Positions 6,866 through 59,106 of a DNA stretch of 64,000 bases are shown here, in pieces (positions within the stretch are counted from its first letter, which is position 1; each line of letters starts with the position of its first letter). The stretch is from Balanoglossus misakiensis (taxonomy: Eukaryota; Animalia; Hemichordata), in NCBI GenBank assembly GCA_040954595.2, contig CM082585.2:11139995-11203994 (forward strand). The letters run 5' to 3'. A program made the position numbers and the translations under genes. The notes beneath the pieces were generated by a model, which was given only the letters and a program-made list of their open reading frames with translations, did no database searches and had not been told where the DNA came from.

Positions 6866-12112
<5,247 letters not shown>

Positions 12113-12825: not shown

Positions 12826-14076
12826 ATGGTAAAAGGAGACCTCAAGTTTGCCTTCATCATGGTGATGTCGCTTAGTTTGTTTCTCTGTTGGTCATCTACG
12901 ATAAGTTTCAATCATCTGGGAGACTTATTTCGATTCCAAAAGTGGAAATTACACGCAGGACAGACTTATAACAGTGGTAGTGACCCTAAGGACGTTGTTG
13001 GTGACGTCATTATCAAGGAGGAACACGATTGGCCCGTTGGAGCTGAGGGGAGACAAGGAAACAGGCGTCCCAAGACAGAAGAAATGCATCTGACAGTTGC
13101 GGATGAGTCTACTACTGAAACTCATCAAAATACAACAAAAGATAAATACCTTGAACAAGCACTGATCGGTACTGTCCAGCCGAATGTCCACATAAAAACT
13201 CATCAACCAGGTGGCTCAACATCATCGGTTGCCATTGGTAACTCGACCGTATCCACCGACTCGCGACGTCCAGAGTCCGACTTGAGATCAACGGCTGCAA
13301 AAATAAAAGCGCGAAAAGGTTTCGTCATAATTCATCTCCTAAATCTTGGCTACGTCAACATGACAAAAAGTTGGATTTGTAACGTGGAGTGTATGGACCT
13401 GTTACCGTTAACACTATTCATCACCAGTGATGTCGAGTCTTACTGGGCCTTGAAAAAATGGAAACCAGATTTAAATGTCGTTTTGCAGAAGTTTGGGGTT
13501 TCAAGGCGCATGTCCAGTAAAAAAGATGTTGCGTACCACGAATATATGTGCTATCGAACTAGAATATTAGATCTGATTCTACGGGACAATGTTTCAATAT
13601 TCTTGGTTGAGGCAGACTCGGTTTGGTTGAAGAATCCAATGGATGTAATCACGCGGTTCTCCAACTCCGATATCCTCTGCACCGCAAACAAACCCGGAAC
13701 CAAGCAGGCGATGGCCGGTTTCGTCTTCCTCAACGCAACAGAGGCGACGCAGCAGATGTGGACAAAATTAAGAGATACCCTGGAATCTAACATGGCGGCC
13801 ATTCACAAAGGCACAGGCCATGCTATATCTGACATGGGCGTCTTTAACCGTCTGATTAACAGCGAAAAACTCAACATACAGTGGCTTCCAGAAGATCAGT
13901 TTCTCGGCGGTCGTTGGTACAAAGATCAAGGGCAGCGTAACACCACCAAAACTCCAATTGTTATACAAAATAATTTTATTGTAGGCAACGAAAATAAGGA
14001 AAACCGAGCAAAAAGTTTTGGACACTGGTTTCTCTCCGATACTGCCGATGAATGCATTGGAAACCCATGTGGTTAA
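12826..14076 (+). CDS. Intronless type II membrane nucleotide-diphospho-sugar transferase (GT77-like fold)
   Basis: Single ORF with N-terminal TM helix (FAFIMVMSLSLFLCW), low-complexity stem and catalytic region with NLGYVNMTKSWICN, LVEADSVWLKNP (DxD-like), QNNFIVGNENK. Confidence 0.8.
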   Translation: MVKGDLKFAFIMVMSLSLFLCWSSTISFNHLGDLFRFQKWKLHAGQTYNSGSDPKDVVGDVIIKEEHDWPVGAEGRQGNRRPKTEEMHLTVADESTTETHQNTTKDKYLEQALIGTVQPNVHIKTHQPGGSTSSVAIGNSTVSTDSRRPESDLRSTAAKIKARKGFVIIHLLNLGYVNMTKSWICNVECMDLLPLTLFITSDVESYWALKKWKPDLNVVLQKFGVSRRMSSKKDVAYHEYMCYRTRILDLILRDNVSIFLVEADSVWLKNPMDVITRFSNSDILCTANKPGTKQAMAGFVFLNATEATQQMWTKLRDTLESNMAAIHKGTGHAISDMGVFNRLINSEKLNIQWLPEDQFLGGRWYKDQGQRNTTKTPIVIQNNFIVGNENKENRAKSFGHWFLSDTADECIGNPCG

Positions 14077-15013: not shown

Positions 15014-16504
15014 GTTGCTTTTTGAGCTGCACAGTGATGGCCGTCGAACAGAAAGGAAGCCCTACAAATGCGCTGTCTTCGATCACTCACTCAACGACAT
15101 GGGTCACTTTCCAGTACGTGTTCCTGGGTCGCGTTCTGATCGACAAGGTCAGGGTTAGAATAAGAGTCACAAATCGACGTGTTGGTGGAGGGACTGTATC
15201 TTAAACGACATTTCTACAACAACAATAACAGCAATTATGATGCATTCAGGGGAAAATGACATCACCGCATATGCTAATCTGATGCAAATGACTTTGACGT
15301 CTCTTCCTAACTTCGGATATGTTTCCGATCGGGGGAGTTAATTGGATTAACCGAATAAACATCCAATAAACATTTCAGCAAACCATAATGAGCATCATAA
15401 CAATAGGGGCCCGAGAGTTTCCCGACCGTCATTCTTGAGAGACTGTGATTTTGTTGAATAGCTTATGTTCCGCTCATTGCGAGATCTCGCGAAACATGGC
15501 TAATTACCAAAGCAGTGGGTTACGAGACAATTTTAACCAAATTTGTAACCCATATAAACTATATCTCGCCGAGTCTTTTGGAGTGTGGGCTTACCTTCAG
15601 CTTGATTTCCAGAGAAAGTATTTCTCTCGTCCATCCGTGGTGGCGCTGAAACGAGTCACTTTGGCAGCTCTGGTAACGTTCAATCGTTTCATGACCAACG
15701 TGGCAAAGGAAACGAAGCCCATTCGGTGGTTTGATGCGTTTGAAGTCTTCCTTGGGATAAGAAATAACCCGAGTGTCAACGTCAATCAAGTCAATGAGAG
15801 TTTTGGTCGTATTTAACCACATAAATCGAGCCCAAGACGATGTTCATGCTTCATGCATGTCCTCCGAAACAAATAAAACGAGGCGCGCATGTCCTGACGG
15901 AGACCTGCCAACACCTGTTCACTTTCTTTCAACCAATCAGAAATACCTTTTAAAGTTAAAATTAGCATGGCGACGAGTCACCCCTAATTATAATCTTACA
16001 CTTATAACATCTGTCAAGTTTGGGCCAGTTATATGCAAATTAAATGACACAGGAAAAATTATGTATGGAGAGTTTTAATGACACTTCGGCATAAGAATTA
16101 TTGAAATATTTTTATACAACAGCATATTTGAAGTTCATTGCCTTAGCAGTCATGAAATAGACTCAATGGAATGTATAACTTGCAATATATCAGTCCTGCT
16201 GTCTCCATAAAGTTGATACAAAATCTCAAAGATTGCATTTTACTATATAAATCTACGCAAAACCTCCAATTGAACTGCCAAACTGCATACATATAAGATA
16301 GTTATGAAAAATGCCAAATGAAGAACTTTGTAGGACCAAAGTCAGATAGAAGTGTTTCCCCATTTTGGCCAGTGACAATACAAATGTGCAAATACAGAAC
16401 ACATTTCCGCTTCTACTATATGTACAAGATATCAACGTTTGAACTTAGCCATTGCTAAGGTGTATGATAGACGCAAAATGCAGCTTGCTAATGTTCAGTT
16501 GCAT

Positions 16505-19500
16505 TCACATAAAAGCACTGCTGCCATGCTCAAATTTGCTGCCAAGACCAGCAGCTTTCTTCATCATTCGTTTCTTCATTGCATCATCAAATTGATTGAC
16601 TTGCAGGTCCACTTCTCGATCAAATGGTCGCCGCTCATTGGGTTTGTGTCCTTCTTCCTTCTATGGTGAAGAAAATGAGACAGAAACAATATACATTTCC
16701 CTTTTGCAATGCCACATATGCATGCAGTATGGTACGAGAAAACTCCACTGTAATATTTGAGCCCAGAAGGGAAATTATAAGAATTTGTCTTTGAATACCA
16801 ACGTTTACTGAGCATTTAAGCATGTTTTGAAGGTGATTTAAGTTGTTCTGCAGATCACTTACAAGTTTTCTTTTCCTTGCTTTTGTGTGTATATCGACCA
16901 ATGTCTCTGATCGTTTGTCTTGATTGTGTTTCGCAATCTGTTCAGCAATCTGTCTGTCTCTCTCCGACATAATTTTCTCTTCTGATTCTTTCTTCACTTT
17001 ATCCGGATGGCTCTTTTCCCGCCGTTCCTGGAAAAGTAAAATACAGAACGATGGCAACTGTATGATTTCAACTGGGAGTGTGTCAAAATCTGCGCCTGAA
17101 GAACCATACTGAGCCAAATTCACATACCATTGCCTTTCTTGCCTTATCTGCTGGAGTGTCTGTCCAGCCAGATCGATCTTCCATGTCTGGAGCTGCTTTC
17201 TTTCTGAACGTTCTTGTCCCGAGCCCAAATGCCTTGGAATATTCCGGTAGTTCTGTCATCCAGGATTCTCTTTGTGGAACTTTGGATTCATCCTGAAAAA
17301 TGGAGATGAGGATGGAAGAAAAGGAAGACAATTATCAGTGTTGCTTTTGGTATCATGGATCCGGGTAACAAAGGGTTCAGATCTTGCTTTTGATTTTAGT
17401 CATGTCAAGTGGGAGTTGACCTACTAAGCAGGATTGTTAAAATAAAGAGCACAGGATCTTACTTTTCCAGTAAGTCTATTTTTCATGGCTTGCGCACGTT
17501 CTTCAATATCCCTAGCAACAGAGGATTCTGGTGCTGCTCCTGTTGACGGCATTGGGCCAATCACATCCTCTTCTTCCTCCTCATCACTTTCTGGGCTGCC
17601 ATGGTACCCACCACCCCAATCATCATCATGTTCTGTCTTCTGCCTATATCCCGGTGGCAGTGCGGGACCCCATGATGGAGCTGATTTCGTCTTGTGGTCG
17701 TCATCTCCACCTTCCTTTTTGTATCCAGGTGGCAATGCAGGTCCAAACAAATGTTGGGAAGCCACTCCCGTACTTTTGTCTTCTTCATCTTCATCATAGT
17801 CTTTCTTTTTATATCCTGGGGGAAGGGCGGGTCCAAAGCGATTCTGGGAAACTGTGGATTCAATTGTTACCCCTCGATCATTCTCATCTTTCTTATAACC
17901 TGGCGGTAGTGCAGGGGCATAATTATTTCCTGAAAGTCTCGATGCAGCTGTGACATCACTGTCCTCCTCCCCCTCCCCCTTCTTTTTATACCCTGGTGGC
18001 AAAGCTGGTCCATATGCACTGGGTGACACAACGGCAGTTCTTATGTTGTCTGGATCACGACCGCTTCCAGATGACTGACCAAGGTGAGGTGGAAGAGATG
18101 GGCCGGCCACAGCTGAACCTGCGAGAATGATACAACACATTCATTATAGAATGATAATGTTGTTATGACAAACAGAAGACAGAAATTAGAAAACACAACT
18201 ATTTGAGATTGGCGTTGGTTTGATGATAAAAAAATCTAATTAATGTACAACTTGCCCTTCTTAAATTTAGCATCTGTCCTCTCTTTCTGAGTGGCGTCCA
18301 TGACTGACATTGCTAACTTTTTCCTCCTTTCAAAATCTTTCCTTGGAATGGTGTTTACAATGAATATGTTCTTTCCGTTCAGATTTTCTCCTGCATTAAT
18401 GAGACTGCTGTACTTGCTGGGTTTGTTACGAAGACAGACTTTGATATCACCAGGTTTGTTCCTTTCATTGCAATTGGTTCTGTAGGCATTGACTATTTCC
18501 TCAGGAGGCAAGTCAAAATCAGCCAAGACATTTTGTGCGATGGCAGTAACATCTTCATCTTGATTTTCCTCAACACCGACTATCCTGATGTCAAAACACT
18601 TTGAGTGTCTGTCTCCTTGGAATACGTCTTTCTTTCCATCATTTGATTTCTGCTTATCTACCATGTCAAACTTATTTTTCAAGTCAAGAAACTGCTTTCT
18701 CAAGTTGGCTGTTTCTGTTTTCATTCGAGCAATTTCTTCCACTGCATGATTCATTGCCTTTTCGATTTCTTTTTGAGCTGACAAAATATGGTCAAGTCTG
18801 TTTAAAGCCTGAATTTGGATGTTTTTGTTTTCATTCACGTCAGCTTGAATTTTAGTGATTGCTGCACATACGAACTTGCGGAATTCTGAACTGTTTTCAA
18901 GAATATGCTTGTTAATTGTGAAGTTGTTGCTTCCATGACCTGTCGTGAGTCTTGCTGTACCAGATGTGGGTGTCTCCCTTGTTACATCAGGTTTGCTCAA
19001 ATTTTCCATTTTTTGGCTGTTAAACTGCATGGTTTGAAGTCCACCTTCCCTTGTGGTCAATCTTAGTGGTTTTGGTGATGGAGACTCCTGATTTTTAGGT
19101 GGGAAACCACATGCAGAGACTTTGTTGAAAATTGAGGCACCTCTCAAAAACACATCCTCACCATCACGGAAGCACCCATCAAGCTGTGAATGTGTTGTTG
19201 AATAATGTCATTTGACCTCAACAAAGAAATAATGTCATTTAATCTAAACACAATCGGCAATAATATTACATGTCATTCACTCCAGATCAGAATTATCCAC
19301 GCCAAAGTGGCACACATGGCCATATCACGCGGCGCTTGTACTGTATGTGGCCGTGTAATGTGTAGGGCTGGGGCTGGACTTCGTCACGGACACTAAAGAC
19401 TGCGACAAAACAAAGAAAAGGTTGGGTCAAATCGTCTAATAACATACCTGAAGGTAAACTTGGTCCACAGGTATCATCTCTTTCTTCGCACGCGTCATCT

Positions 19501-19571
19501 TCTCCGTCGCTACTAATATTTTTCTGTATTTTGAATCCAGGAGGAAGAGTTGGTCCGAAATAAGAAGCCAT
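16505..19571 (-). CDS. GPALPP1: GPALPP motifs-containing protein 1
   Basis: Exon 19571-19448 (MASYFGPTLPPG), exon 18118-17463 (repeated GPALPPGY, DVIGPMP), then PQRESWMTELP..RTF..DRSGWTDTPADK, RSETLVDIH and RRPFDREVDLQVNQFDDA...FM* (TGA 16507-16505). Confidence 0.9.
18236..19153 (-). mobile_element. LINE ORF1 / L1-transposase-like ORF (coiled coil + RRM-like), nested in GPALPP1 intron 1
   Basis: Open ~300-codon frame (first ATG 19030): heptad-rich segment, then IRIVGVEENQDED..IVNAYR..KPGDIKVCL..LNGKNIFI..RRKKL..AKFKKGKLYIN, typical of invertebrate non-LTR ORF1-like proteins. No ORF2 seen nearby. Confidence 0.6.
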
Positions 19572-19769
19572 ATTGGGGTCAAACTTCAGGTCAACATATA
19601 ACGAGACATTTCATTGGCCGCCTTCTAATCCACACACTCTTAACCAATAACATCACGCGTTATATTGTGCGTATGTTTATCTGTGTTCACACACCAGCTA
19701 TCCCATTCAAACACCAGTGAAATATACCGATCTGCTATTAGAGACAGTTCTTTCGCTCTCTGGAATAAT
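19572..19769. promoter_or_regulatory. Bidirectional promoter between GPALPP1 and PIN4
   Basis: Head-to-head start codons only ~200 bp apart; opposed CCAAT boxes (attgg ~19613, ccaat ~19644). Confidence 0.6.
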
Positions 19770-20969: not shown

Positions 20970-22605
20970 TCACTTTTTGTCTTCGTCATCTTCATGCTTT
21001 CTCTTGATGCCAGTTGTGACTATCTGTGGTTGTGGAGTGGTTGTCACGGCAGCAGTGGTGCTGGGAATAATTCTGACAGTGAATGGTGTTGCAGAAAGCC
21101 CAGCAGGTGCTGTCTTTGGTGTTGGCGTACTCATCACTGATGTAGGCTGTAGCATTGTGTTGGGCGTGGCTGCAATGTACAAGATCCAGAAATGAAACAT
21201 TGCATGCACTAGAAGTCTAGAACTTTCCAGGAATTTAATTCAAATGAGATGTATCACGGTAATATGCAAATGCAGACATACCAGGTGTGCCCCTGACTTG
21301 GGTGCCAATTTGTGTTGCTCCAACAGACAGTGAAGAGGCTGGTTTTGTTACTATGGAGACTCCAGTAGGTGTGGTCACTCTTGAGGCAGACATGGACATT
21401 GGTGCCGATGATTTGGTTAGACTAAGTGTGTGGATGGGTTTGTTCAGCGTTGTTGTACCTATGGCAGAAACAAATGTAAAGTCAAGATTGTAATAATTTA
21501 GAATTTATATCATCTCGTGAAAAGCTCTGAGTGCAACTTGGATGTAGAAAACATGAAATACAGGTTTAGGGTATGTGTGACACTTACCATGTGACAGATT
21601 TATTCTTGGAATGGTCAGAGTTGGCTGGAAGACACAAAATGAATAATTCAAGGATCCTATATAAACGTGTACACACTAAAAATATTTCTGTCATTGGCCA
21701 ATATGTTGATAAACTTTACAAAAAAAACATTTGAGGACACACTGAGAATGCCATTTACCTTTTTGTGAAGATTTTTCAGCTTATAATTGACAGCAGATAA
21801 GCAGTATCTGTCAGGAGGTAGTCTGGGACCATTATGTGGTTTGATTAGTGGCAGGGGTATACTGTTCTTTTGTCTCGCTATTTCCATCAGCAGCTGTAGG
21901 AGGAAAGAGGAACAGGGAGAATATATGTCATGTGCAATCTTTTCACTACAACCAGCTCTGGTATGACAACACTGTTCCATGTCTCTTGCTTCGGCTTAGC
22001 AGGATTGATCACACATCACTTTGCTTAGAAACAAGATTACATGTATAATAATCCACTTACTTCTCTTGGGGGTGGGGTTGTAAAAGAACGGTCCATCTGA
22101 TGCTGAACAGACAACTTGACATCATCTGCATCCACAGACTTTTTACCACTATGCTGAGAATACACTTTAGCGTCATCCAGGATATTGGTAACATATCCTA
22201 GAATTTATAAACATACATTGGACGTGTTAGTGCTATTCAAGATACACCACCGACTTGATATACTGTATTTAATTCCAACTGATTTCATGCAAATACTCGT
22301 GCAGTGACAGGTATACAATCAAACAACGGTCGTTATAGAAGCTCCCAGTCTCAATCTCTTGACTTGACGTTGTACATGTTGTACGAAGGCTCAACAATAA
22401 CAGTGGAGAAGAGAACCACGGTTACTTTACCCTGTCTCTCCCGATTTAAATGTAACTTACTGTATGTGAATTCTAGCATTTGGTTAATGACCCTTGGCTC
22501 ATAGTCAGTAATTCCCATATCTTTCAGTATAGCCGCCATAACTTGAGCATCTCGCGGAGAGCTTTTTGCTGGCTGGCTTGGAGCTGTTGATGTGGGCGCC
22601 GCCAT
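20970..22605 (-). CDS. TAF9: TFIID subunit 9
   Basis: [32 protein letters not shown] / [15 protein letters not shown] / SFTTPPPR / [27 protein letters not shown]; low-complexity tail ending [11 protein letters not shown]. The exact 3' end could involve one more small exon. Confidence 0.93.
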
Positions 22606-22628
22606 TTTGATTGTAGTGCGCCTTCTTG

Positions 22629-22642
22629 CCAGTAGAGGGCGG
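22629..22642 (+). promoter_or_regulatory. CTCF-like motif in TAF9 promoter; YY1-like AAAATGGCG overlaps the TAF9 ATG
   Basis: CCAGTAGAGGGCGG fits the CCASYAGRKGGCRS consensus. Confidence 0.45.
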
Positions 22643-23376
22643 TCTGTTTGTACCTTTCGTTTTTTTCTCTCACATATTCTGAGTCACGACTGCTTCAATT
22701 TTCTCAGTCTGAGATGGCGACAAGCAAGGTTACGAATATACAGGCCCTTAAGGCATCGACTTTACTGTCGAAGCTTCAAAAGAAGAGGCGAATCCCCTAA
22801 AAAGCCTACGTATATTCTTTTTATGCCTAGGTCGGCCTACATCTTCGTTTCGTAGAAAACTAATCATATAATGAAAGTTTTCGTTTCCTCAGTTCCGAGT
22901 CACGATTTCCAGCTCTGAGATAACCCACAATAAAACCCCTTCGAGAAATTGTAAAGGGGTTTAGTCCATAAATGCAAACACCCGATAATATTATGACAAC
23001 GCTTAGACAATTCTTACTAGGTTTATTTCATATGTTCAAAACCTTAATTACACCAATGTTGCTTGCGATAGCTATAAATCATGAACATTTTGTAAGACCA
23101 TAATTTTCAGATTTTTCAATGTTTCACTGATTGTAGTTTTTTGTATCTCGATATCTTGATATTAAACAGACATTTGCATATATAAGTTTGCCTCGTTCGG
23201 ATTGATTACAATTCGTTAGTGCGTGCTTTCATAATATCTTGCGATAAACCACTGCCTCGCTTGTAGGATGCTAGTCGGCTATGAGCTTTCATTTGCGATA
23301 TAAAACAACATGAAGAAGAGTACATATGAGAATAGATGAGTCCACGTCTTAAATAGCCAGTCTGCGGACATCGTAA

Positions 23377-36642: not shown

Positions 36643-39574
36643 TTATTGCATGTAACACGTATCATGGACTTTAACTCTTTCCTTCAAAAACTTTGTCCCC
36701 TTCCTCTTTCCCAAACGTTTGATCTTCCTCAGTCGTTTGTCGAGGCTTTCGCCCGAGATCTCCAACCTCCACAATAGAGAGTCCATTTTGCTTTCCTTCA
36801 GACAATGTAGTGTAACATTCATGTATGTGTTCTTGTCATTCGGATGACAGGACTCTGGACACTGATGCACAGATTCGATTGAAATACACATTTTACCATG
36901 TGTTTTTTTCATTATGTGATGTAGCTCTGGTTGGCAGCTGACAGCAGTGTGCTGGGTAGTTGCCACAATGTGCCTTGTCTCTGGATTCTCATTGGCACTG
37001 TTCTCTTTGTAGAGTTCATCCAAGAAATCCTGCGGAACCGGCTGCTTTCCGTCGAAGTACACCAAGCCGAAGAAGGTCCCCTCCTTCTCATAGTGGATGT
37101 GAGTGCCTTGTTCTGGCACGACGATACACACAGTGTCATTGGCATTCAGAAGAAACATGCCAGCGCTGTGAGACGTTTGTTGGTCGGCTCCGTTCAACGA
37201 CACTAGGCTCTTCATGACGGCCTTGTTGCTGATATTTATGAAGTGACCAACAGTAAGGAGGTGATCATCATGGTAATGGATCTGACTGTAGATGTAATAT
37301 CGACCAGGAATCAATACTTTGATTTTGCCAGTTCTCCCATCGTACTTTAGAGACTCAGATGTGACTACCTGAGAATCTTGCCATGTTTTCAGAACTTCGT
37401 TTTTCTCTGTATGAGATAGAATGAGTGGATTTGCAAATCGTTAATTATTAGAAGTAATCTGGAAGAAGTTTGTTGTTGGAAAAGATAATTTCATTTCCTG
37501 TGTGAACATGGATGACTTAGCAAAATTTGAAAATCCAAAAATAAATGATTGCTATTTGTTTTGTTTTACTTACCACGCGTGGGACGAATCCCCAGATTTT
37601 TAGACTCAAGGTGAGCTGCTGGACGGGAAATTCTGTGTGTTACCTAAGATTACAAGTTAAAGGAACGGGTCAATATTTTGAGACACTATATTTGATATTT
37701 TTGTTCTTATGCAAAAACTACAAACTAAACCATGGTTGTGTTAACACTGTTAAGCCACACGTTTTCTGGACATAAACTATATAGTTTCTTCCTCCAAATA
37801 TTATGTACATACCGATGGTATAAGAAGCACTATTACTTCAAATCCGAGTGTTAGCAATAACTTACCAAATCTCGATTTACTTGACCGTCATGATACAACC
37901 AGGCAAGATATTCTTGAAACTGATCGAATCTACAATGGGTGGACGATCCACCTTAAAATAACAAATCGTGACGTCAAAACCTTGCTTATATGAAAATGTA
38001 CGGTTGGGCCTGGTGACGTCATCACAATTGGTGAATCCTGTTTTTTTTTTTGGGTACCCTTTAAAGGGATACAATCACCCTGAGTTTACATTTACTTGAT
38101 GGCGCATCTGTGACTGAATTAAATGAAAGTTATTCTGGCTGGTTTTCTAGGTTAAACTTTTCAGGTTATTAGGTCATTTATTTTGCAAGGTCACTGTAAC
38201 ATCTAGCCGCCATCCACTGATGCGCGTACGCGTTTTATTATGGCCAGTTTACAGTACTTCAGGTAAACCGAAATACTGATTTCAATGTACATGTAGTTCC
38301 AAAGAAACGCATTGAACGGAGACGCATAATGCCATAAGCCTTGACCAATCAGCGGACGTATGGCAGAATATGGAAATTTTCTCGCCGGAAGGGACGGCCC
38401 CTTATGACGCCATTCATAGAAAGGGAAATCCCCCTAGCATGTCAAAGTTCAAACTCTCTGTCAACGTGTGCGTATTGTGCGTAGCTGCAAAAAGTAATAT
38501 CCTACATATTCCTCATTTATTATGTCTGCCTTATAGAATTTATTATTGTTATTATTGCTGTTGTTGTTGTTGTTCGAATGGAGATATCGCTTGTACACCT
38601 GGTGTTTGCTGACCAACACAAAAGATAGAACCTGACCTGACTTGAACTTTGCCATTTTTCTAGACTGTACATTAGATATATGATTGTACAATGCACTCGG
38701 CATTTACGAGTATGTCAAGTGCATTGCGTAACCACATGTCGGCTGTGGCAATTTAAATGATATCATAAAGCTATCGCTTCCATTAGAAACACCTTCCACA
38801 TCAAATAAACAACCCCAGCTCCATTAGGTCACTCGGGTCAACGATGTTGTTTACAATCATGCTCAATAGTTGTGGCACGTCTTGTACAAAGCGTGATGTT
38901 TTAAAATTTAGACAGACGGCCATTTTTATACCCCTGGTCTGTTTTGCTCAAATGAACACAACTTTAAGATGAACTTAGCAAATAAAGCGACCTACCAGGC
39001 GAAAATAAGTCCCTATCGACACTTCTTTCAACGAGATGAATAGAGCGACCCTATTAAGACAAAAACACCAATAAAGAATTGTTTGAGTCACAGAAAGTGA
39101 TAACAATACTTGGCAGTTGCATAACATACACCATGCAGTTGGTCATCTTTAGGCGCACAAGGTGTTTTACGAATCTTCAGATTGAAAACAAATTCCTAAG
39201 CCATGCAGTGGAAATGAATGTGGTAGTTGGACAGTGCACGGGCACCTGTACGATTAAATTCGTTGTCCTGAAAACTTGAAACTTGAACTCACCTCATCCA
39301 CTTCCGGAAAGCCACCATCTTGTGCCTGATCTCGTTCATCGCGAGACTGGAAACCGACGTTCACATCTCTGTCGACCGTGTTCTCCATCATGTTTTCTAT
39401 TTTAACAACACGCATGAATACTGCAACAATGATCGTGGTCAGAGCGACAAACGCAATCGCATTCAGGATGGAAATGATGACCAACACATTCAATAGCTTT
39501 TGGCTCCCCATGTCTTGAGGTTGAGCAGAGTTTCCTTCAGTGTCAAACAAAGAGGTTGCATCCTTCGGTTTCAT
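36643..39574 (-). CDS. TNF superfamily ligand B with C-terminal vitellogenin-type Cys-rich extension
   Basis: Exon 39574-39293 with TM; small linker exons; RPAAHL exon (~37643-37574); last exon GKIKVLIPGRYYIYSQIHY...SHSAGMFLLNANDTV...TFFGLVYF, followed in frame by ~130 aa containing 6 Cys. Confidence 0.85.
38423..38432 (+). promoter_or_regulatory. NF-kB-like site in an intron of TNF gene B
   Basis: GGGAAATCCC matches GGGRNWYYCC. Confidence 0.4.
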
Positions 39575-40899: not shown

Positions 40900-42803
40900 A
40901 TGAAACCCCTTTCCGTGTCGCAATGTTGATACGAACAACAACCTTCACTTCAGAAACAGTATAAACAGACTTGGTTATTCTGTAAATTGTAGAAAACGAC
41001 GGTTATGGACCACTCCAGCCCTTCTCCGTCAAACAAATGAAGCGATTTGTTTATTCTGGAGCATTACACCTGTTGTTCATTTATATGTAAATGTCTTTTC
41101 ACAGAATGAAAACCAATTCAAATGATTATATAATCGCACAGAAACCGAAAATGGGCACTCATATCGATCGAATGTAATGGGCGTCAGGGCATGGATTATG
41201 AATTGACAGATTGCACTGCCGAGAGGTCAAATGATAATCTGGCACGCTTTCACGACTGTCATGCAATCAATTCCCTCTATAAAGAATGGATTGATTTCAG
41301 CCTTCCAAATGCCTATTACTGAAAGGCCGCAGTTTGTGTAATCGAATGGGCGTGTGCATGCAGTTGTGGTGGACGGGTAAAGAATGAAAGAAGCCAAAAT
41401 CACAAACCATCTACCCACCTTCTTTGCATTATTACTCTTGTGCAGACATATGTCTTCAAGTAAACGGAACCAGTGTGGGCATTAAGTCTGGTGTCGCAGT
41501 GTTTTCCGTCTTCATCCTAGATCAACTGATTCTACATGTTTTGCCATGTATCGCTTACCTTCAGTCAACATTCTTCTTTTCTCAAAATTATCTCCACTTT
41601 TGGTGTGACTGTATACTTTCTTTGTGATGAGATCTTCATGAAATGAGGTAGAATCCGTGGAGTTTCGATTCAAAAACCTTCTTCTAAACACATGTCTTCT
41701 TATGAAATCCGTCAGCATTTTGATCCCATCTTCATAACAACTCCGTGAAGCTTGCTGCTCTTTATTTCTGTAACCAACGCAATAAGAAAATTCCCCAGTT
41801 ACAATCTTTGTTAAACTCTTCACAATACCAGAACCTTTATTGTAGTTTACAACACTACATGTGACCAGACTCTTTGTTCTCTTGGGACATTATCTATGAT
41901 AATGCACTGGTACCAGTGCAATATCTGGATATTGCACTGCACCTGGCATAATAAGATTCACTACAACAAACAAGATAGCTTTGACAGGAGGTGCTGCCTC
42001 CGGCGGGAAGAACTGCTTCCAGGTGCACACACTTGGTTCGTCCATCTTTCTTTGTCGTGATCTCTGCGCTGCAGGGCTCAACCTTTGGTTGGGGGTTCGT
42101 TTCTACCTCACACACGGATTCACCTGAAAGCTTGATTTTTTTCGACGTACCAAAACTTCCCTGAAGTGCCTACGCTGACGTACAATCGAACATTCCTGAT
42201 CAATATAAAACTACAAATTTACAAGTTCCGAGGAAAATGACAGAAAAATGGTACTTACAGACTGAGGATGTGCGCAATGGCGGCTGCAGGCCAGGAGAAA
42301 GGCACCCTTGATTTTCTGCAGGACACTTTCCATGACCGATGGTTTATGTACATTCTCTTCAATGAAGCTACCAAAATCTTGGAAAATCCAGTCCATATCG
42401 TAAAAGCTACGCCCTTCGCTTTCGCTTGGGTGTCGGAACGTGCTCCATGGGTAATGAAAAGCTCGTGCTCGTCGCTACTTTCGGCCATGGTGTTTGTCTG
42501 TCGAAGGTTGAGTTCCGAATGATGATGGAAACGTGGCACCTCAATGACCACGTGACAAATGCCCTGGTTGACAAGTATCCAATCGAAATGAGTCATACAC
42601 CAGGTGTATTTTGCGACGCTTGTGATTGGTTGATGTGGTTGAGAAGTTGTTTAGCATATATCAAGATCACAGATGTTGCGACGTATTGTAAGCCGGATAA
42701 TGTACTCGTGTCGTGCAATCGTTCAGATATTGAACGACACTCGGGCCTGCGGCCCTCGTGTCGTTCAATATCTGAACGATTGCACTCCACTCGTACATTA
42801 TCC
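40900..42803 (-). mobile_element. Degraded transposon-like element ending in a long palindrome (possibly Crypton/DUF3504-type)
   Basis: Fragmented minus-strand frames (MAESSDEHELFIT..., ..EKRRMLTEGK..) next to a 109-bp hairpin. Family assignment is a recollection-level guess and the left boundary is approximate. Confidence 0.3.
42695..42803. repeat. Long near-perfect inverted repeat (hairpin)
   Basis: ggataatgtac..gtgcaatcgttcagatattgaacgacac [tc gggcc tgc ggccc tc] gtgtcgttcaatatctgaacgattgcac..gtacattatcc. Confidence 0.92.
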
Positions 42804-44517
42804 TTTACTTACATACCCATAACTCCCAACCACTTTCCCCCACATTTGGTTTAGCACCAAAATACCATTCGTCTTTCCTCATCAGAAACAATTCTGCATC
42901 GTGTATACCTACTTCAGTAAGTGCACACATATTCGTGTAGGACATGTCTTGTCACGAGTCCCCCAATGTTATGAAATAAATACAAAGACGTAAGCAAATC
43001 AGTTGATGTAAAAAAAATCTTTATTTATTGCCTTCAGGAACATAAAACATGGTGACAGCTGAGTAAAGTTTATCTTGAATATAAAAAATTCACAAGGGTA
43101 AAATGGTTTAATAGGAAATCTGTAAGGATTTACTCTCATTGAGTTCCTTGCTTTATTATTGTCATTTTACATGAAAATATTCGACTTGAATACTAAATAT
43201 GTACAAAAATGATATTACAATCATCAAATTATATTGTTTTTCTAATGACAAACACTCATAATATTTTCACGGCGATGTCGAACGTTTGGCACACTGCGCT
43301 GAGATTCCAGGCAAACATTATTTGCCTGGTTACAGTTGCCACCCACTGACACGCTTGTGTCTGAAGTTATCAGCCAGCACGAACAATTGGAAGCGTCCTT
43401 GAACTGGCGGACGATGTGGCTGAACTGACAGACTTCAGACGTCGGGGATATAAAACACTGAGTTGGCCACTACTATGCCGGAAACAACTTTTAAAACCCC
43501 GGTACAGAAACTTTCCACACAGTTTTCATGATATTAGTTTCACAAGAAAGTAAAGTCGGGCCAATTGACTGTCCTACCCAATAGATGTGTACTATCTCGT
43601 TGATTCTAATTACACTCCCACATGAAATAATATGCAAATCATTTCTTGGTGTGCAGCTAAATATGACCTCCTTTGTGTACACCTTCATAGAAATCTAGCC
43701 ACTATATGTACCCAGCTACTTCAATGCTGCTTTACAAAGCGCTCAAGCTTATGTACAACAATGGCAATGTCAGATCAAAACAGAACAAAATTTTTGAATG
43801 GCAGCTATTTGATTTAGTATCATGTTTACTGCAGTGGCAGGTAAAGGCCGACATAGATTGCCATAGATATGCAATGTTAGAGGCAGTGAGAAAGTAAAAC
43901 TGGGCGATATTTTGCAAAGAAAAAATGCCACTAATATCATGATCATCAAACGCCTTCGAAATTTAAGAGTCTAATCTTCGCAATTTATGTAAAGACCAGT
44001 GGAACACAAGCCTTTACACTTTGTCTGTTAAAGGTAACTTTCATATAAAATGTATTTGAAAAGGCGAAATACAAGCTAAGTGACAGAAATGCTATTTACA
44101 ACGGCGTGTACAGACAGAAAGTGAAAGAGTGCGCAGAAGTGATTAAAACCACAACATGGTCTGATGATGAGATACAGAGGCTGAAAGGGGTAATATTGAT
44201 AAAAGAATATTTCCCAAAAAAAACAGATATTTTAAATTTTCTTAATTATAAGACAAGATCAATCTATTGTTTCAATTTGGTATAAATAATACACGACTAA
44301 TTTTATATGTAAATGTCGCTCTTGACCTTGCAGGATGGTAAGTCCTCGAGAGCGTGTTAATTGTGCTAAAGTCAGGCCACAGAACATTATGGAATGACAA
44401 TGCAGAAATGTAAATGTTTAAGACAATTTTGTGAGATTGTAATCCGTGTAAAATCACGTCTGTGGACAGATGGCATCAAAAGCAAATCAGGGCTGGTTAA
44501 GACATATGTACAAAATC

Positions 44518-44760
44518 TTATAATTTTAAAAGTCCCAAAAAATTGGCACCCTCTTCCCTTGATATTCCATTTGGGTTGCCTTGCTCGTCCACGGGTAGAA
44601 CGACAGATACAGTTTGGTGTGGTTGTATTAGTGTAATCCCGGCCGTGTAACATGAGTGGTACGGGTATTTCGACTCAAAGTACTTGCATGACAAGAATTT
44701 CTTTTTTCCAACATTCACCGAGTAGCCAACAAAGAGATTGTTGTCATCTTTAAAGGTCAC
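44518..44760 (-). CDS. TNF-C terminal exon T3
   Basis: acag|VTFKDDNNLFVGYSV...FLSC...YHSCYTAGI...ANFLGLLKL*. Confidence 0.85.
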   Translation of the reverse strand: MTFKDDNNLFVGYSVNVGKKKFLSCKYFESKYPYHSCYTAGITLIQPHQTVSVVLPVDEQGNPNGISREEGANFLGLLKL

Positions 44761-47700
44761 CTGTAAGTAAGGCACAACCAGAAGTAGGAGTCAGGTGGCG
44801 AGGCCCTTTATTTGTTGTTTAACCGTGGGGGCGGGAAAGATGATCGTCAGGAGAGTTTGACCAGCCCGACGAACGTACTGTCGGGGCTCATGTTGATCAC
44901 GCGATCGGGATACCGAATGTGAACTTTGAGCTTGCTTCCCTGCTGAAATCTGGCTATCCCGCCCGTAAAACAGGTATTATACTTCGCCCCAGAATAAGCA
45001 GTGTGGGTACAGGACAGGATTGCGTCATCATCGACAGACACAGCGTGGCTCATGTTCTTGTCATCATAATATAACACCTGGAAGCAGATAAAACACGTTG
45101 TCATGTTGTGGACTCCTGACTTCAATTGGAAAATTTAGGGTCTAATATGATCACATCTGTGTACTCTTTCACTTTGTTCTGTACATATTTTCTGGAATAA
45201 TTTTCACAGCCCTTTAAAACTGTTGAGATGAGCTCAACAACGGTTATCGTTCACCCTGTATAAAATAACCTTTAAACTGGCGGCCATAGTCAGAACTAGA
45301 CCCGCCATTAAAAACAATGCCTTTGTGCTCACTGTGTACAATACAACACTGTCCTTGTGTCAAATGTGAATAGAATCGGCCTGAGTGATGGCTCCGGACA
45401 TGGAAACATTGTAACAAAATAGTCGTCTGGTCGCCATATTGGATCGTGTCACCGAACAAGTTGACGTGTACATGTACAACATCACAGTGTATTTTCCTTG
45501 TGCCAAATGTGAACCAATTTGGTTCTCACAGCCCAAGAAACGACAGCGGACGCGTGAACGGATGGAGCTTAGTCTATGTAGCTTAAGCTAACTAAACATC
45601 TGTTCACTTAAATTTGATTATTCCTACAAAGGTTGTCACTGGGGTCAGTTGAACTTCCGCTTCATACTGTATTTTCACTGTTACTGTTGACTGTGCGGGC
45701 ACATGAACAAGACCTCCGGTATAACATGAGCTGAGTTCCGGGGCTCTGCTATATATATAATTAATACATCTGAAAAAGAGGTCTCCGCCAATGTCAATAT
45801 AGTGACCAACAAATGGATTGCCTTTATACGTTACCTAAAAATCAAGACAGAAAATAAGCAATGATTAACTCATAATACATTTATGTTGAACTCTGCACAC
45901 ATACTAGTTTCAAACAAAGCTTGAATTGTGTTACTTGGCTACAAACCCATTGCTACGGTAATTTATCAAGTCTCGCAAGATCTCGTGATGAGCAGAATAT
46001 GGTCTATTGAGATCACATTTACCTGGCTATATACATAGTACAGGCCAGCCTCTTCCACGATAATCTCCCCGTCTATGTTCTTTCGAAATTTACTCTTGTC
46101 ATCGTTCGTCATCCAGTCTGCGTACTTCCAGAAATTAATGGTTCCATCTGTAATTAAAACCAAATGTTTCAATTTTTGAAATCAAAAAAGAAAACATAAT
46201 GTTCACCGTCTTATTTTCATTTTAAAAACACAACACTTCTTTGTATTTTCGCCATAGAGTTAACACACAGAGGGTGGCCATTTTGATTTTCAAATCTGAG
46301 GCAATTTTGTTCGCCCATTCAAAACTTTGCACGGTGACCCCATTTTTTATTCTCAATCATAGTACTGTACAAAATAGCAGAGTTTCAAACTATTCATTTG
46401 ACACAAGGAAATTAAAATCCCAAATCAACTACCTTACCTTTAATCTCAACAACGCCTCCATTTTGGCGATCGCCCACAAAATGAGCCGCAATGACACTCG
46501 ACTAAAACAGATTTTAAGAAGAAATGAACAAAGTGTCAATCGTCTGACAGAACGAAAGTGAAAGCGAAAACTCACGTGGGCCAGTGTGTACAGCCGCTTC
46601 GTTATCCCCTTCTAAATGGGCAGCGATTAACTCAGGCTGGTAAAAACGAACATACACAACCAATATTTAGAAGTAATTTTCACGACTGATTGTAACGTCA
46701 AATGTATTGGTTTTCACAAACCATTATAACAATGATGATTTGGAATTTATAATTTCTTAATTTATGCCAATCTGATGGAGATCTCTGGATTTATTTTGTG
46801 CCTAGCTCGGGCAATGAAAATACACACAGCACCACACGTTGGTTTTGCGCTTTAGCGTATAACAGCGGCAACAACAACAAAACAGCAGCAACAACAACAA
46901 CAACAACAGCAACAAATTGCAACAAAACACAAGCAAAATATCCCCAAATACTGTTATGCTTAGTGAAGAATTAGAGGAAGGGGAAAGTTGAACTAGACCT
47001 TAATTAATTCCCACTATATTTCCTATTAGACAAAAAAGTATGCTTACCGCTTGGCCAGGTTCACCTGCAAGGCAAAACACAAAGGGATAAGTTTAATATG
47101 AGAAAAAAATACTTTTCGGTCGTTGTTAGAGAATTCTGACTCGAATAGTCCATATAGGATAATTTTAGTCTAGGTTTTCCTAAAACTTCTTACACATAAA
47201 AGAACTTAATGATGCCAGCCAGAATTAAATTTAATATATTTGAACACAGTTTTGTTGATGAAGTTAAACATATTAAATCATACACATTCACGTACCTGGT
47301 TCTCCCTTTTCGCCTTTTTCTGAAATATAACGGATAAAAATGGAAAACAGTCAGTTCAACTTAGCTGTTATTGAGCTTGGCTAGAAATTTAAGTGTACAG
47401 CAACCATCTCAAATCTCCTTCACAAAGTCCTGTCATGTTCCGGGACTGTATAGCTACTTCAAATAAGCAAAGGTTCAAAGGTACTTATACTTACCCCCCT
47501 TCCGCTTTTTGCCCTTTTTCTCTCCTTTTTTCTTTCCTCTTTTAACGCGATCTGTGGAAAAAATCAACATAATAAAAACATTACACTTCAAAGCAACAAG
47601 AATTTCATAATTTGCCTCTTTCCTGTCCTCAAAAGAACTTCAGTGACAAGAACAAACGTTAACGCTTTAAGTACCCTGATGAAACTCACCCTTTCCGATA

Positions 47701-48396
47701 TCTTCGATATCATCCTCCAGGCCATATTCACCCAGGTCTCCCTTGGACTTTGAATTTTCGTAAGGAAAAGAACTCTCCATGTCAGCGTCGAAGTCAACTT
47801 CAACTAGATTACCCTTCTCGTTCGAATTTCGCGACATAACGCCTCTCTCTTCATTTTCACTGTATTCATGACCCCTGATAATACTTGCCATGATTTTCTA
47901 CGGAGATAAAAAAACAATCGCAATTAAACTACAGTCTCAATCGTTTGCCAATGGTTAGAATGTCAAAAGCATGGACTAGATACATAACGATAAAACTAGG
48001 GCGGTGAGCTACTGGTCTTATGTGAAATATCAGTAGTTTTGAGTGTTGTTTGCGAACACTCACCTGCATAAGAGGTCCGGTTTCATACGCTTGGCCCGTG
48101 TTCATGTTTGTGCCAACTTCCGTCTTGTCGGGCTTAGCCTCGTTGTGCACAACGGGGCCAACATTGTTAGCCCTCGGACGGCTGCACTCTTCTGGTAGAG
48201 CTTCAAGCGCCTCCTGCAATTGGCCGACTATACACTCCAGCTGGTCGATCCTCCTGCTTTGACCAACTTCGTGCCAAACGAACACCGGAACTAACACCAA
48301 AACAATTAACACAGCGCTACCATTCGCCCACGAATTCCGCGAAGGCTTCGTAGCGCTAGCAGGCTCTGCGGTGATTAGACCCTGGTGGTCAACCAT
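44518..48396 (-). CDS. TNF superfamily ligand C, ectodysplasin/Eiger-like, with alternative exon arrays
   Basis: Exons 48396-48064 (TM), 47897-47690, ~47551-47495 (RVKR furin site + KKKGEKKGKK), collagen micro-exons 47319-47296 and 47064-47048, alternative A exons, constant exon 46147-46023 (..EEAGLYYVYSQ), three terminal exons. Confidence 0.88.
44847..45077 (-). CDS. TNF-C terminal exon T2
   Basis: ccag|VLYYDDKNMSHAV...SCT...KYNTCFTGGIA...YPDRVINMSPDSTFVGLVKLS*. Confidence 0.85.
   Translation of the reverse strand: MLYYDDKNMSHAVSVDDDAILSCTHTAYSGAKYNTCFTGGIARFQQGSKLKVHIRYPDRVINMSPDSTFVGLVKLS
45604..45834 (-). CDS. TNF-C terminal exon T1 (absent from the ORF track)
   Basis: ttttag|VTYKGNPFVGHYIDIGGDLFFRCINYIYSRAPELSSCYTGGLVHVPAQSTVTVKIQYEAEVQLTPVTTFVGIIKFK*. 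Confidence 0.82.
   Translation of the reverse strand, partial: VTYKGNPFVGHYIDIGGDLFFRCINYIYSRAPELSSCYTGGLVHVPAQSTVTVKIQYEAEVQLTPVTTFVGIIKFK
46438..46501 (-). CDS. TNF-C alternative A-strand exon b
   Basis: ttttag|SSVIAAHFVGDRQNGGVVEIK|gtaag; 64 nt, phase 0 to 1. Confidence 0.8.
46576..46636 (-). CDS. TNF-C alternative A-strand exon a
   Basis: ccag|PELIAAHLEGDNEAAVHTGP|gtgag; 61 nt, phase 0 to 1. Confidence 0.8.
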
Positions 48397-49052
48397 GTCT
48401 GTGTTGTTCGCGCTGTTGGTGCATGCTGTATGGACTTTGCAGTCCTCGCTCTACGCCTTCTAAACTTCATTATACGGGGACCAAAGTGGTTCCAGGAATC
48501 GCGGACATGCGCAATCGAGCCTTCTCGGCGGATAGCTAGTTTACTTCACCTGACCTGGGCCTTGCTGGGCTCTGGTGGTCATGTGTGTAAGAGCTCTTTG
48601 GCACCATGCCAGTGTATGGTCGCCGCCAATAAGTATATCTTGTCTGCAGCTGGCGAGACGTCCTTTTGAACTCATAAAAGCACAGGTGACTTGTACAAAA
48701 ACGCAACGTTTACAAGTGAAAGAAATACAATTTGGTGACATAAACTAAACTGCTCGTATATCATAAACTTATAGTAACCCCATAACGCAATTATTATACA
48801 GACTAACACTTATGATATTATTAAAAGAATAACAGATTAAACTTAAATTTGCTATAGCAACTGTCGGTGAGGGCGTCTGTAATAAAACATATCAATTTCT
48901 TCGACGTGTGTTATGGAGTAACCTCATATCATTAATTGGCCGCGGTTGCAAGCAATTCTCGAAAATGATATCAAGTACAGTATTTAACAATGTCGACTTT
49001 GAAATTGTCGCATACACAGAACATTTTTCGATGCGTTATAAACCACTACAAT

Positions 49053-49623
49053 GGGGAATCCCCACAGCTACTTAACCATACTGGGAGTATATGGTATTCG
49101 AAATTGTAGATGGTTGGTTTAGGAGAGGTGAGTTTGGCAGAGCGAGAGAAGGGGGCTCAAAAGTACGATGGACAACTTACAGACAGCTCACACAAAGTAA
49201 ACTTACCTGTGTTCATACTAAGCTTAAATGATCGACACAAACCATACGAGTTCCAACTCTGCTAAAATATGCTCTGTCTGTGTACTGTTACCTCAATATA
49301 ATGACAGTATACCATTGCAGTTGCATAGCAACATGCATTCCCAGGCTGGCAGGCCTTCCCTCCCATTCTACAGATGGAAATACCTGATTCCAGAGTGATC
49401 TCCATCTCGGGAATCAAAAGTGGTATGTCGCATGCAAGTTCGAGCTGTGCTAAGCCAAATGGTGCTGCTCTAGACGCAGACACCTTATCGCAACAAGCAC
49501 AAGCCAGGACTGGCGGGTGGGACTACAGCGTAGAAAGTATAATCGCGTTGACAAAATCCCCGTCTAAAAAAAGACTGGAAACCCCCTATTTGGGCTGTTT
49601 GTGACGTCACCTGGGGAAACCCC
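49053..49623. promoter_or_regulatory. NF-kB-like sites upstream of TNF gene C
   Basis: GGGGAATCCCC at 49053-49063, GGGGAAACCCC at 49613-49623 and GGAAACCCCC at ~49577. Confidence 0.5.
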
Positions 49624-52261
49624 AGCCGCACCTCAAATGAGACCAAAATGCGTGGGCTACCCAGTAGGCTTATACCTTATCCAGTTATGGGTAGGCCTCT
49701 ATAGACGATGAAGCAGTGTACACATGGACCATGTATTCATCGGCCATTTGATATTCCGCCACCGATTCCAACATAACCGTAAGTACAACACACCTGATTC
49801 ATAGAGGTCAAGTCAAGCGCATTGTCTGTGATTTAAATTTGGCCAAGCTCACTGTCTTACCCGCCTAGACAGAAGCTTGGGTCTGGCAAAGAACACCAAA
49901 TGCTCCCAGTTCATAACAAACTGGTAGTTGTGGACACAAAACAAATAACCCTAGCTCTACATGATGCACTGGCACAGGTAATCATCAACTAGACTGAGTG
50001 GGTTTGTGTTAAAATTAAGCTGTTTACAGTCCTTGAAGGGGGCCGTGAAGTTTTGACATGTGTCGCAGGGAATGACAGATAGAATCAGGACAGTTGCTTG
50101 TCTGAAAGCCTTGGATGGAGTCAAGGTCATGCAGAAATAGGTGCATAACATTTACTCCGTGGTTTCACAAAGACAGGGAACAGAATGTCAGGGATTCCAC
50201 ATCAGAAGTTAACAAGACTGCATTTTCGTGCAAAGGGTTTACACTCTGAAACTCTCAATGTGAACGCCCAGTCAGTCTCGTCTATACGACAAGCAGGAAA
50301 CCATACCCTATTCAGACAAGTTGAGGTTAAATAGGCATCCCATATTTCAAAACAGTCGAATTTTTTTAACGTGGTCTCTTGACCTAAATCGAAGGGGCAA
50401 ACTGATTTAAGGTAACTATGGTAATTAATCCAAGGGAAGATATCACTATCTAATCACAATCTATTTTCCGCGCAGTATCTGTCACTGTCACGACGGTTTA
50501 TCGGAAGAGAACTTTATATGACTAGGTATCACACCAACCTGGTTAAAACTTGAAAAGCATTTATCTGGTGCTTGATTATTAAAGTACACTTGAGTGTAAA
50601 TCAACCAGCAAATTGCCCGCAATAAACGGGCGTTCAGCAGTACATTCAAGTCTCTCGCCATAAAAAGAAAGTTTCATCATGAAACACAGATCCCCAACAC
50701 AGCAGAAGTCTGTTCATAAAAGTCTCCAGACTACCAGACGAGAAAATGTGGTTTCAACACGATGTTGAACAGAATGAAACAGCATGACTGTAACCCGGTT
50801 GCCATGCGCAAACTGCCGGCTACCTATAGACCCACCACAATGAACTTTTAAGCCGGACAATGACACACTTCAGCTAGGGCTTTATTCAAGATCTTTGCTG
50901 AAAATTTCGGAGCCCCCTTCAATTTTGTCAACTTTGAACTCTGGGTGGGTCATGTGAGGTCACCGCTTCATCATTTTGGCGCTCATCAAACAGAATTTGG
51001 CTGTTCTAATAAACAGTCTGGTTCTATCTGACCTTGGGAGCTTAGGACAATATACATGTCGATGCCAACTTCGGCCCCCATTTTCAAATAGTGAATAATG
51101 GGAAGGTGTTGTTGACAACAGAAACGTCAAAAGCTCAAAGGTCATGATAAATAATGGACATGGCATGGGCTATTTCTGTTGATAAGCGCGATGTTGTAGT
51201 CCCGGACCTTATTGTACGCCTGTTAGTTTACGCAGGCTTGGCTCACATCCAAATAATATAACAATGGTCAGGACTTTGATACCTCCTGAACTCAAACAAC
51301 GCACGCAAGGACAAGATTTTAGCATGCGTCACAACAATGCGGCGACTACAGTTCTAGATTACTTGGCCCAGGTGCCAAAGTGAAAGTAAACTCACATTTC
51401 CTAAACTGCAGATTTACCTTCATGGATTTTGCCAAATCCGATTTAATTCAAGAATTTGATGTCAAGAATGTCTATGTGTTGTAATATCTTTATGTCACAA
51501 GGAGATTTAGCTAAATAGACGCACTGACTGTGTCGACTAATAGAGTCACATTTCCATGTCGGCTCTACAGTCATATGTCAACACGCTCGTCCTCGGAGTA
51601 CGAAAGGCTCCACGGACGTTCTAAATATAGTCTTGAGAATCATGTGAAAATGAAATAAACAAAAACGCAAACGAAAATTAAAATCAGACATTTATTAAGT
51701 CAAAACTGAATAATGTCTTACAACGGAACAGGTTACAACTTGAAGACAAAGTAAGAAACTAAGGAATTCAAGTTAGGATGATGTCAACGTAAATTTATTG
51801 ATAACACTGATTATCTCGAGTTGCTGAACGATAAATGTTCTGATATGCAAGTATACACTAAAGAGGAAAGCATAGTAAACTTGGACATGTTTGTAAATTA
51901 CAAAACGTGAAAAGTAATTAAGATCATGCAATATGCCTTGTCCAAGGCGAATATTGTATGTTTCTAGAAATAGCAGTGTAACTGCCGGAAGTGAAAACTG
52001 TCAGTTTATACACATGGAAACTGTGTGACCTGCCGGAAGTGAAAGAGTACACAGCCTGGACTACTTTTAGGAAAGAAAACTGCGGAAAGAAATTCCAACG
52101 TACAATGGATTACAATGTCACCTGTTGGTTTCTTTGTTGTAAAATCAATTGTAAATGGAGTTCTGCATAAATATTCTCATTGATACACTGAGGTATACAA
52201 TGTTGTGTCTCCACAGACCTGATCATGCTATAGTATATCCCACCTACTGGTACTTGTGTGA

Positions 52262-59106
<6,845 letters not shown>

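Follow-up and report, generated by a model that had tools for sequence, protein, structure and literature searches.

Long-range RNA pairing directs the choice among duplicated exons in several Drosophila genes, which are the closest described systems to the one reported here. In exon 4 of serpent (srp) and in clusters 4 and 9 of Dscam1, a stem formed between an arm after the proximal exon and an arm after the distal exon favours the proximal exon and suppresses the exon in the loop, and in srp the downstream pairing is needed for use of the proximal exon 4.1 (PMC4691838). In the immune gene PGRP-LC, selectors upstream of the cassettes compete for one upstream docking site, and the cassette after the stem is activated (PMC6191721). 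In Nmnat, two boxes placed around the acceptor of a terminal exon shift its usage (PMC2724269), and human exons that are looped out by pairing show a lower inclusion (PMC8052449). Here we describe a related arrangement in the acorn worm Balanoglossus misakiensis, in a window of 64,000 nucleotides (assembly GCA_040954595.2, contig CM082585.2, positions 11,139,995 to 11,203,994). Two paralogous TNF-like genes of this window, TNF-C and TNF-D, each carry three alternative last exons, and around the second and third of these exons lie two complementary arms predicted to form a real, probably functional long-range duplex.

The minus strand of the window contains four TNF-like genes, and the exons, arms and poly(A) signals of TNF-C and TNF-D given below, in window coordinates, are all on this strand. 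The TNF-like exons share 69-86% identity with Ptychodera flava proteins and 48-68% with Glandiceps talaboti proteins. Both TNF-C and TNF-D have a common exon ending in YSQ and, after it, three homologous exons, T1 to T3, duplicated in tandem. Each of these exons has an AG acceptor of its own, always in phase 0, is 76-82 codons long and carries a separate stop. These are three alternative last exons, each coding for the C-terminal half of the TNF domain. In TNF-C, the common exon (46023..46147, ending YVYSQ at a phase-0 donor) is followed by T1 (45604..45834, 76 amino acids (aa) and a stop), T2 (44847..45077, 76 aa and a stop, 75% identity to P. flava XP_070537479.1) and T3 (44518..44760, 80 aa and a stop, 48% identity to the last exon of Glandiceps XP_077987598.1). 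In TNF-D, the common exon (54425..54561, ending YIYSQ at a phase-0 donor) is followed by T1 (53847..54083, 78 aa and a stop, 86% identity to P. flava XP_070538527.1), T2 (52632..52868, 78 aa and a stop, 74% identity to XP_070538529.1) and T3 (52262..52510, 82 aa and a stop, 69% identity to XP_070538524.1). The Pfam TNF model (PF00229) matches five of the six T exons, four of them over the curated cut-off, and its second half is the part covered; TNF-C T3 on its own has no Pfam match. A TNF homology domain, a collagen-like repeat and an N-terminal hydrophobic segment are present, as in EDA/Eiger-like members of the TNF superfamily, the collagen and N-terminal exons being assigned to TNF-D. About 77 residues are exchanged with the last exon, and the other T exons are 26-50% identical to TNF-C T2. 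TNF-C T1, with its frame and acceptor intact, forms a long branch in the last-exon tree described below. Stop-codon read-through from T2 into T3 is ruled out since the frames differ in both genes, and back-splicing, or use of the T exons as internal exons, is disfavoured because a simple pattern picks out no strong donor in the stretch from the T3 stop to the 3' arm. Candidate distal poly(A) signals were found at 43020..43157 in TNF-C (AATAAA starting at 43157, 43029 and 43025) and at 51691..51799 in TNF-D (AATAAA starting at 51799 and 51696).

An earlier, sequence-only reading of the window had proposed that TNF-C carries an inverted repeat of about 36 nt with a few mismatches, and this was confirmed. 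On the sense (minus) strand, the 5' arm (45150..45185, between T1 and T2) and the 3' arm (44107..44143, in the 3' untranslated region (UTR)) form 31 pairs over 36/37 nt, interrupted by a 2x3 internal loop, by two A•C mismatches and by a single U•U mismatch; the energy is -39.3 kcal/mol. The outer stem of TNF-D joins an arm at 53160..53180, again between T1 and T2, to an arm at 52036..52056 in the 3' UTR through 21 pairs on the sense strand, at -34.6 kcal/mol; the TNF-C stem has 8-bp and 5-bp extensions of its own beyond the shared core. Both outer stems form in regional folds with a probability of 0.93-1.0. The claim that the arms occupy the same positions in both paralogues holds for the intervals (T1-T2 and after T3) and fails for the offsets, which differ by about 200 nt: arm 1 lies 73-108 nt upstream of the T2 acceptor in TNF-C and 292-312 nt upstream in TNF-D, and arm 2 lies 375-411 nt past the T3 stop in TNF-C and 206-226 nt past it in TNF-D. 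Similarly, the core that had been described as identical is so in the intronic arm (18/18), and the TNF-C 3' arm differs at 2/18 positions. The flanking pair is indeed A-U in TNF-C (45175/44118) and G-C in TNF-D (53180/52036); situated at the edge of the alignable block, this compensatory pair would alone be weak evidence for a duplex. On the opposite side of the core, A-U in TNF-C becomes U•G in TNF-D. A 10-bp continuation of the TNF-C stem near the T2 branch region (45111-45102 with 44158-44149) was also considered and is missing from the sense fold.

The pairing exceeds chance in both genes. We scored strict helices in 21 segment pairs per gene against dinucleotide shuffles, and the pairing of the T1-T2 intron with the 3' UTR was equalled by 0/2000 shuffles in TNF-C and 0/2000 in TNF-D. 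It is the sole one of the 21 pairs per gene that shuffles did not match, the next best being reached in 14/300, and none of the first-intron pairings beats shuffles in this set (best 18/300). With a scoring that permits gaps, the same pairing is weaker (14/1000 in TNF-C and 17/1000 in TNF-D). The arms also hold the longest non-coding word that the two paralogues have in common, an 18-mer, against a maximum of 16 nt in 1000 shuffles. Four copies of this 18-mer with at most 3 mismatches occur in the window, where 0.09 are expected; the UTR-to-UTR match alone, of 12 nt, shows no excess over shuffles (112/1000 reach at least 12). Complementary non-coding boxes that are both beyond chance and conserved are therefore present in both paralogues. 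When each arm was compared to the whole minus strand of the window, its best partner was the other arm of the same gene in 4/4 cases, by just 1 kcal/mol for the TNF-D 3' arm. Duplexes between arms of the same gene reach -40.6 and -46.9 kcal/mol versus -32.5 and -30.2 across genes. An upstream partner for TNF-C arm 1 at 46564-46547 was discarded, its energy (-30.0) being barely over the background (-27.7).

Such a repeat could be a neutral relic, left by the terminal inverted repeats of an old transposon, by a local inverted duplication with gene conversion, or by the ends of a DNA inversion. One local copying event could indeed yield the TNF-C extensions, and the TNF-C sense-strand mismatches resemble decay. 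An origin of this kind is nevertheless very unlikely in our view, given that just the four copies are found in the window, that T1 to T3 are all on one strand, and that arm 1 is unchanged at 18/18 positions when fourfold sites of TNF-C and TNF-D agree at only 16/44 (14/38 in the T exons and 2/6 in the common exon) and the arm flanks can no longer be aligned. A search of Rfam with positions 42500-56000 returned no family at gathering score, with one chance match (E 0.47), and a metagenome scan for the pattern returned 83 matches that represent 1 locus, on an unrelated GC-rich bacterial contig.

The resemblance of the core to IRF/Blimp-1 motifs, pointed out from the start, is real: all four arms carry AANNGAAA and AAGTGAAAG, which are IRF and BLIMP1 cores (PMC2938208). 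The arms could thus be oppositely oriented DNA sites for IRF/PRDM1, or for ETS-IRF in TNF-D, acting as enhancers of an immune cluster, with complementarity as a by-product. The distribution of the motif speaks for such sites, since 8/13 AAGTGAAA sites of the window fall in 9.2 kb of this cluster, and 4/9 still do when the arms are removed (post hoc p ~0.03). Moreover, a second TNF-D copy located 48 nt away keeps the motif and an ETS-like flank without the pairing flank, and the changes in TNF-C hit the flank and spare the motif. On the plus strand, the TNF-D 3' arm reads GGAAGTGAAA, which we take to be ETS-IRF-like. What DNA sites leave unexplained is the sequence around the motif: the 13 sites make 78 pairs, and a match at 6/9 or more of the further bases is confined to the 6 pairs that the four arms make with one another (0/72 for the other site pairs). 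They also account neither for the 8-bp and 5-bp extensions of TNF-C and the better pairing within each gene, nor for the inner stem of TNF-D described below, which is devoid of such a motif. We therefore judge it quite unlikely that DNA sites are the whole explanation. As a separate observation, further IRF-like sites, all on the plus strand, occur at 46547-46573, 51370-51395, 51981-52003 and 48714, and the one at 46556 contains three GAAA repeats and lies directly after a splice donor.

TNF-D possesses a second stem, nested within the outer one. Its 5' arm (52622..52638) spans the T2 stop codon and its 3' arm (52216..52232) lies 30-46 nt past the T3 stop, so that its 17 bp, including two G•U on the sense strand, enclose T3 alone. 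With whole regions shuffled, 1/500 shuffles did as well, the pair probability is 0.95, and the inner and outer stems fold together. The best candidate counterpart in TNF-C is weak: an 8-bp helix between 44860..44867, at the 3' end of T2, and 44490-44497 was equalled in 24/2000 shuffles. Folding thus does not support a conserved inner stem in TNF-C.

The analysis establishes the three exons, which have acceptors and stops of their own, and the complementarity of the arms in TNF-C and TNF-D; in relatives, gene models show that exons of this kind are used alternatively. Building on these, we propose that the predicted arm duplex loops out T2 and T3 and favours T1 when a shared distal poly(A) site is used, a model that we consider somewhat more probable than otherwise. 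Splicing of the last intron is coupled to 3' processing. The isoforms would mostly share the distal poly(A) site, so that the last intron would be resolved late, once the 3' arm and all of the acceptors have been made, and the three acceptors would compete. Without the stem the advantage would go to T3, which lies closest to the poly(A) site. The outer stem would repress the acceptors in the loop together with the internal poly(A) signals, and would shorten the distance from T1 to the 3' end by about 1.1 kb; AATAAA is indeed found within the outer loop of both genes, at 44812 in the T2-T3 interval of TNF-C and at 52961 in TNF-D, and no canonical poly(A) hexamer was found in the T1-T2 interval of TNF-C. 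In TNF-D, the inner stem, enclosing T3 alone, would do likewise for T2, giving a ladder in which the outer stem leads to T1, the inner stem only to T2, and no stem to T3. The choice of half-domain, hence the ligand made, would likely be steered by this clamp. The motif core may serve additionally as a DNA site, and a putative dual role as RNA duplex and IRF/PRDM1 site is plausible from the sequence.

The duplex could instead act after splicing and only in the T1 mRNA, by shortening a 3' UTR of 2-2.6 kb, by affecting stability or localisation, or as an ADAR substrate. All the evidence for pairing counts equally for such a role, and the T1 mRNA alone keeps both arms, arm 1 being spliced out of the T2 and T3 isoforms. 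Given the preference of ADAR, A•C mismatches are possible editing sites. Human genes show an excess of editing sites in stable long-range pairs (PMC8052449). However, in both genes it is precisely the two competing acceptors that lie between the arms, and T3 lies within the TNF-D inner stem, which fits splice choice better, and the helices are short, with 12-21 uninterrupted pairs; a post-splicing role is accordingly unlikely. A different possibility is that the stem hides a cryptic fourth acceptor, since the common exon could be spliced to the pyrimidine tract of the 3' arm, with a truncated domain as the outcome. In TNF-D the 3' arm is also a pyrimidine tract with CAG at its end, at 52030: 6 nt separate the end of the arm from CAG|G, and 13/17 positions are pyrimidines, versus 10-12/17 for the three real acceptors of this gene. 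In TNF-C, by contrast, the next AG is about 14 nt beyond the arm end with a poorer tract, and none of 31 P. flava isoform models is of this type, making this explanation highly improbable.

Several observations weigh against the looping model or against the duplex as its basis. At two positions the TNF-C 3' arm has C where the three remaining copies have U. On the sense strand these changes break pairs and leave A•C, and the TNF-C stem is stronger on the antisense strand, where they become G•U (-48.9 vs -39.3 kcal/mol). Four additional copies of the motif lie within the cluster. In the regional fold, the candidate inner stem of TNF-C has a pair probability of 5e-5. A third helix enclosing T2, ending near the T3 branch region in both genes (45123-45111 with 44792-44781 in TNF-C, 53076-53067 with 52542-52533 in TNF-D), is not significant (326/2000 and 90/2000 shuffles, respectively). 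The AATAAA at 52961 could end T1 transcripts of TNF-D ahead of the 3' arm. Finally, a T1 isoform of the C type is absent from the models of relatives (0/4 in Glandiceps and 0/1 for the P. flava C model). In favour of the sense strand, the three G•U pairs of the TNF-D stems fit it. Selection on an RNA duplex, which the sequence-only reading had put forward, is still the best reading owing to the better within-gene pairing and the shared flanks, and it is tempered by the TNF-C sense-strand mismatches and the IRF/PRDM1-type core.

How does the proposed looping of T2 and T3 compare with the Drosophila systems? As in srp and Dscam1, the stem encloses the distal exon(s). In those genes, however, the exons are internal and the stem joins splice sites (PMC4691838), whereas here they are last exons and the 3' arm sits in the 3' UTR; in addition, no downstream acceptor is known here and we found no competing upstream stem. 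The arrangement shares with PGRP-LC, CG42235 and Pip the tandem 3' cassettes spliced to a common exon and the long-range pairing (PMC6191721). Unlike in PGRP-LC, the stems are nested and compatible and no upstream docking site was found, each arm having one clear partner instead of the docking site and selectors of the Dscam1 and PGRP-LC type. Nmnat is similar in that the 3' arm of its box 1/box 2 stem lies within the terminal exon before the poly(A) signal and the stem encloses the terminal-exon acceptor and alters the C-terminus, as we propose here (PMC2724269). There, the favoured acceptor is distal, downstream of the stem, whereas in TNF-C and TNF-D the stem encloses two duplicated exons and leaves a single acceptor outside the loop, that of T1, which is upstream. 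The cases of RNA pairing that steers duplicated 3' cassettes in the cited papers are from Drosophila, and the present one would be a deuterostome case. If true, its geometry is distinct, with an anchor in the 3' UTR, nested stems and no downstream splice site, and the stem would have been kept through a gene duplication old enough for synonymous sites to be near saturation. It would also offer a compact system of 1.1 kb in which to ask whether RNA structure can set the choice of a last exon via the distance to the poly(A) site. In the literature searched, whose coverage was partial and which included passages of the TNF-superfamily papers PMC12843592 and PMC7674686, we found no description of the exon cassette or of the stem. 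A cassette of swappable TNF half-domains is apparently undescribed, even if the isoforms are already in RefSeq as automatic models.

Those RefSeq models, which are automatic predictions, provide the evidence for alternative use in relatives. Among the 31 isoform models fetched for the P. flava orthologue of TNF-D, the same common exon is followed by T1 in 7, by T2 in 9 and by T3 in 15. A C-like gene of Glandiceps has four isoforms, three with a T3-type last exon and one with a T2-type. Outside hemichordates, the crinoid Antedon has two isoforms with two different last exons, and a Branchiostoma hybrid has six isoforms with three complete last exons and one truncated form, a B. belcheri prediction holding a fourth last-exon type. 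In two sea stars, one last exon is common to 21/22 named isoforms and the remaining one stops before the domain. We built a tree of 26 last exons, which is weak with 79 columns. The amphioxus exons form a clade of their own (95/84) and the crinoid pair is grouped at 88/80, which suggests, on these sequences, separate last-exon expansions in amphioxus and crinoid. The T2 exons of TNF-C and TNF-D come together at 76/43, and in an approximately unbiased (AU) test a TNF-D-exon clade was marginally rejected (p 0.046) and a TNF-C-exon clade was not (p 0.29). The tree thus weakly supports hemichordate T exons that would be older than the C/D duplication, and the shared exon order and stem point likewise. 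Regardless of the stem, exon swaps of half-domains in hemichordates, crinoid and amphioxus mean that gene counts understate the diversity of TNF ligands. One further predicted protein, P0111 (570 aa), contains two TNF domains, one TNF-B-like and one TNF-D-like with another last-exon type, and may reflect a gene model in which genes of a related cluster were fused.

Among solved structures, EDA is one of the closest relatives (PDB 1rj7 and 1rj8, E 4.5e-13), after an APRIL/BAFF construct. The two-residue difference separating vertebrate EDA-A1 from EDA-A2, which decides receptor binding (bioRxiv 10.1101/2022.09.08.507158), falls at YSQ|V, the same point as the last-exon switch described here; EDA swaps two residues, and TNF-C and TNF-D about 77. 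By analogy, the T1 to T3 ligands could differ in receptor specificity. Upstream in the domain, TNF-C and TNF-D also have a pair of alternative first-strand exons, A1 and A2 (46437..46636 and 55645..55820, respectively, with approximate ends), and models from P. flava, from Glandiceps and from sea stars show such paired first-strand TNF-domain exons too. The A1/A2 spacers are of about 50-75 nt, and this shortness may by itself block joint inclusion.

A joint reading, which we regard as doubtful when taken as a whole, is that EDA-like swaps are used in invertebrate deuterostomes, that the acorn worm adds a nested clamp ladder to them, that the clamp is itself an IRF-type element and that EDA-A1/A2 is the counterpart of the switch. 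TNF ligand repertoires would then be made by half-domain exon swaps that expanded separately in hemichordates, crinoid and amphioxus, two first-strand exons and three last exons allowing each gene as many as six domains. With their anchor in the 3' UTR, the clamps would act through distance to the poly(A) site, the IRF-type clamp sequence would link induction to isoform choice, and vertebrates would have, in the EDA-A1/A2 switch, a counterpart of two residues at this very junction.

The neighbourhood of the two genes shows other features. In the interval that separates the 5' part of TNF-B from the TNF-C end, a near-perfect hairpin at 42695-42803 has 53-nt arms that are 89% complementary (about -80 to -87 kcal/mol), occurs as a single copy in the window and has no Rfam match; it may represent a small mobile element or the precursor of a small RNA. 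TNF-B (36643-37440, minus strand) carries most of its TNF domain in a single exon. After this comes a C-terminal extension of about 135 aa that contains cysteine, has no Pfam match above cut-off and may resemble the C-terminal region of vitellogenin. A dispersed palindromic repeat was found at 45940-46015 and 54870-54924, in introns of TNF-C and TNF-D, and at 15457-15521, and a stretch near 30860 is similar to it by eye. Elsewhere in the window, the open reading frames at 8273-11608, 12748-14076, 16635-19610 and 21657-22683 resemble what we take to be mitochondrial elongation factor G, a nucleotide-diphospho-sugar transferase-like protein, a GPALPP-motif protein and TAF9, respectively.

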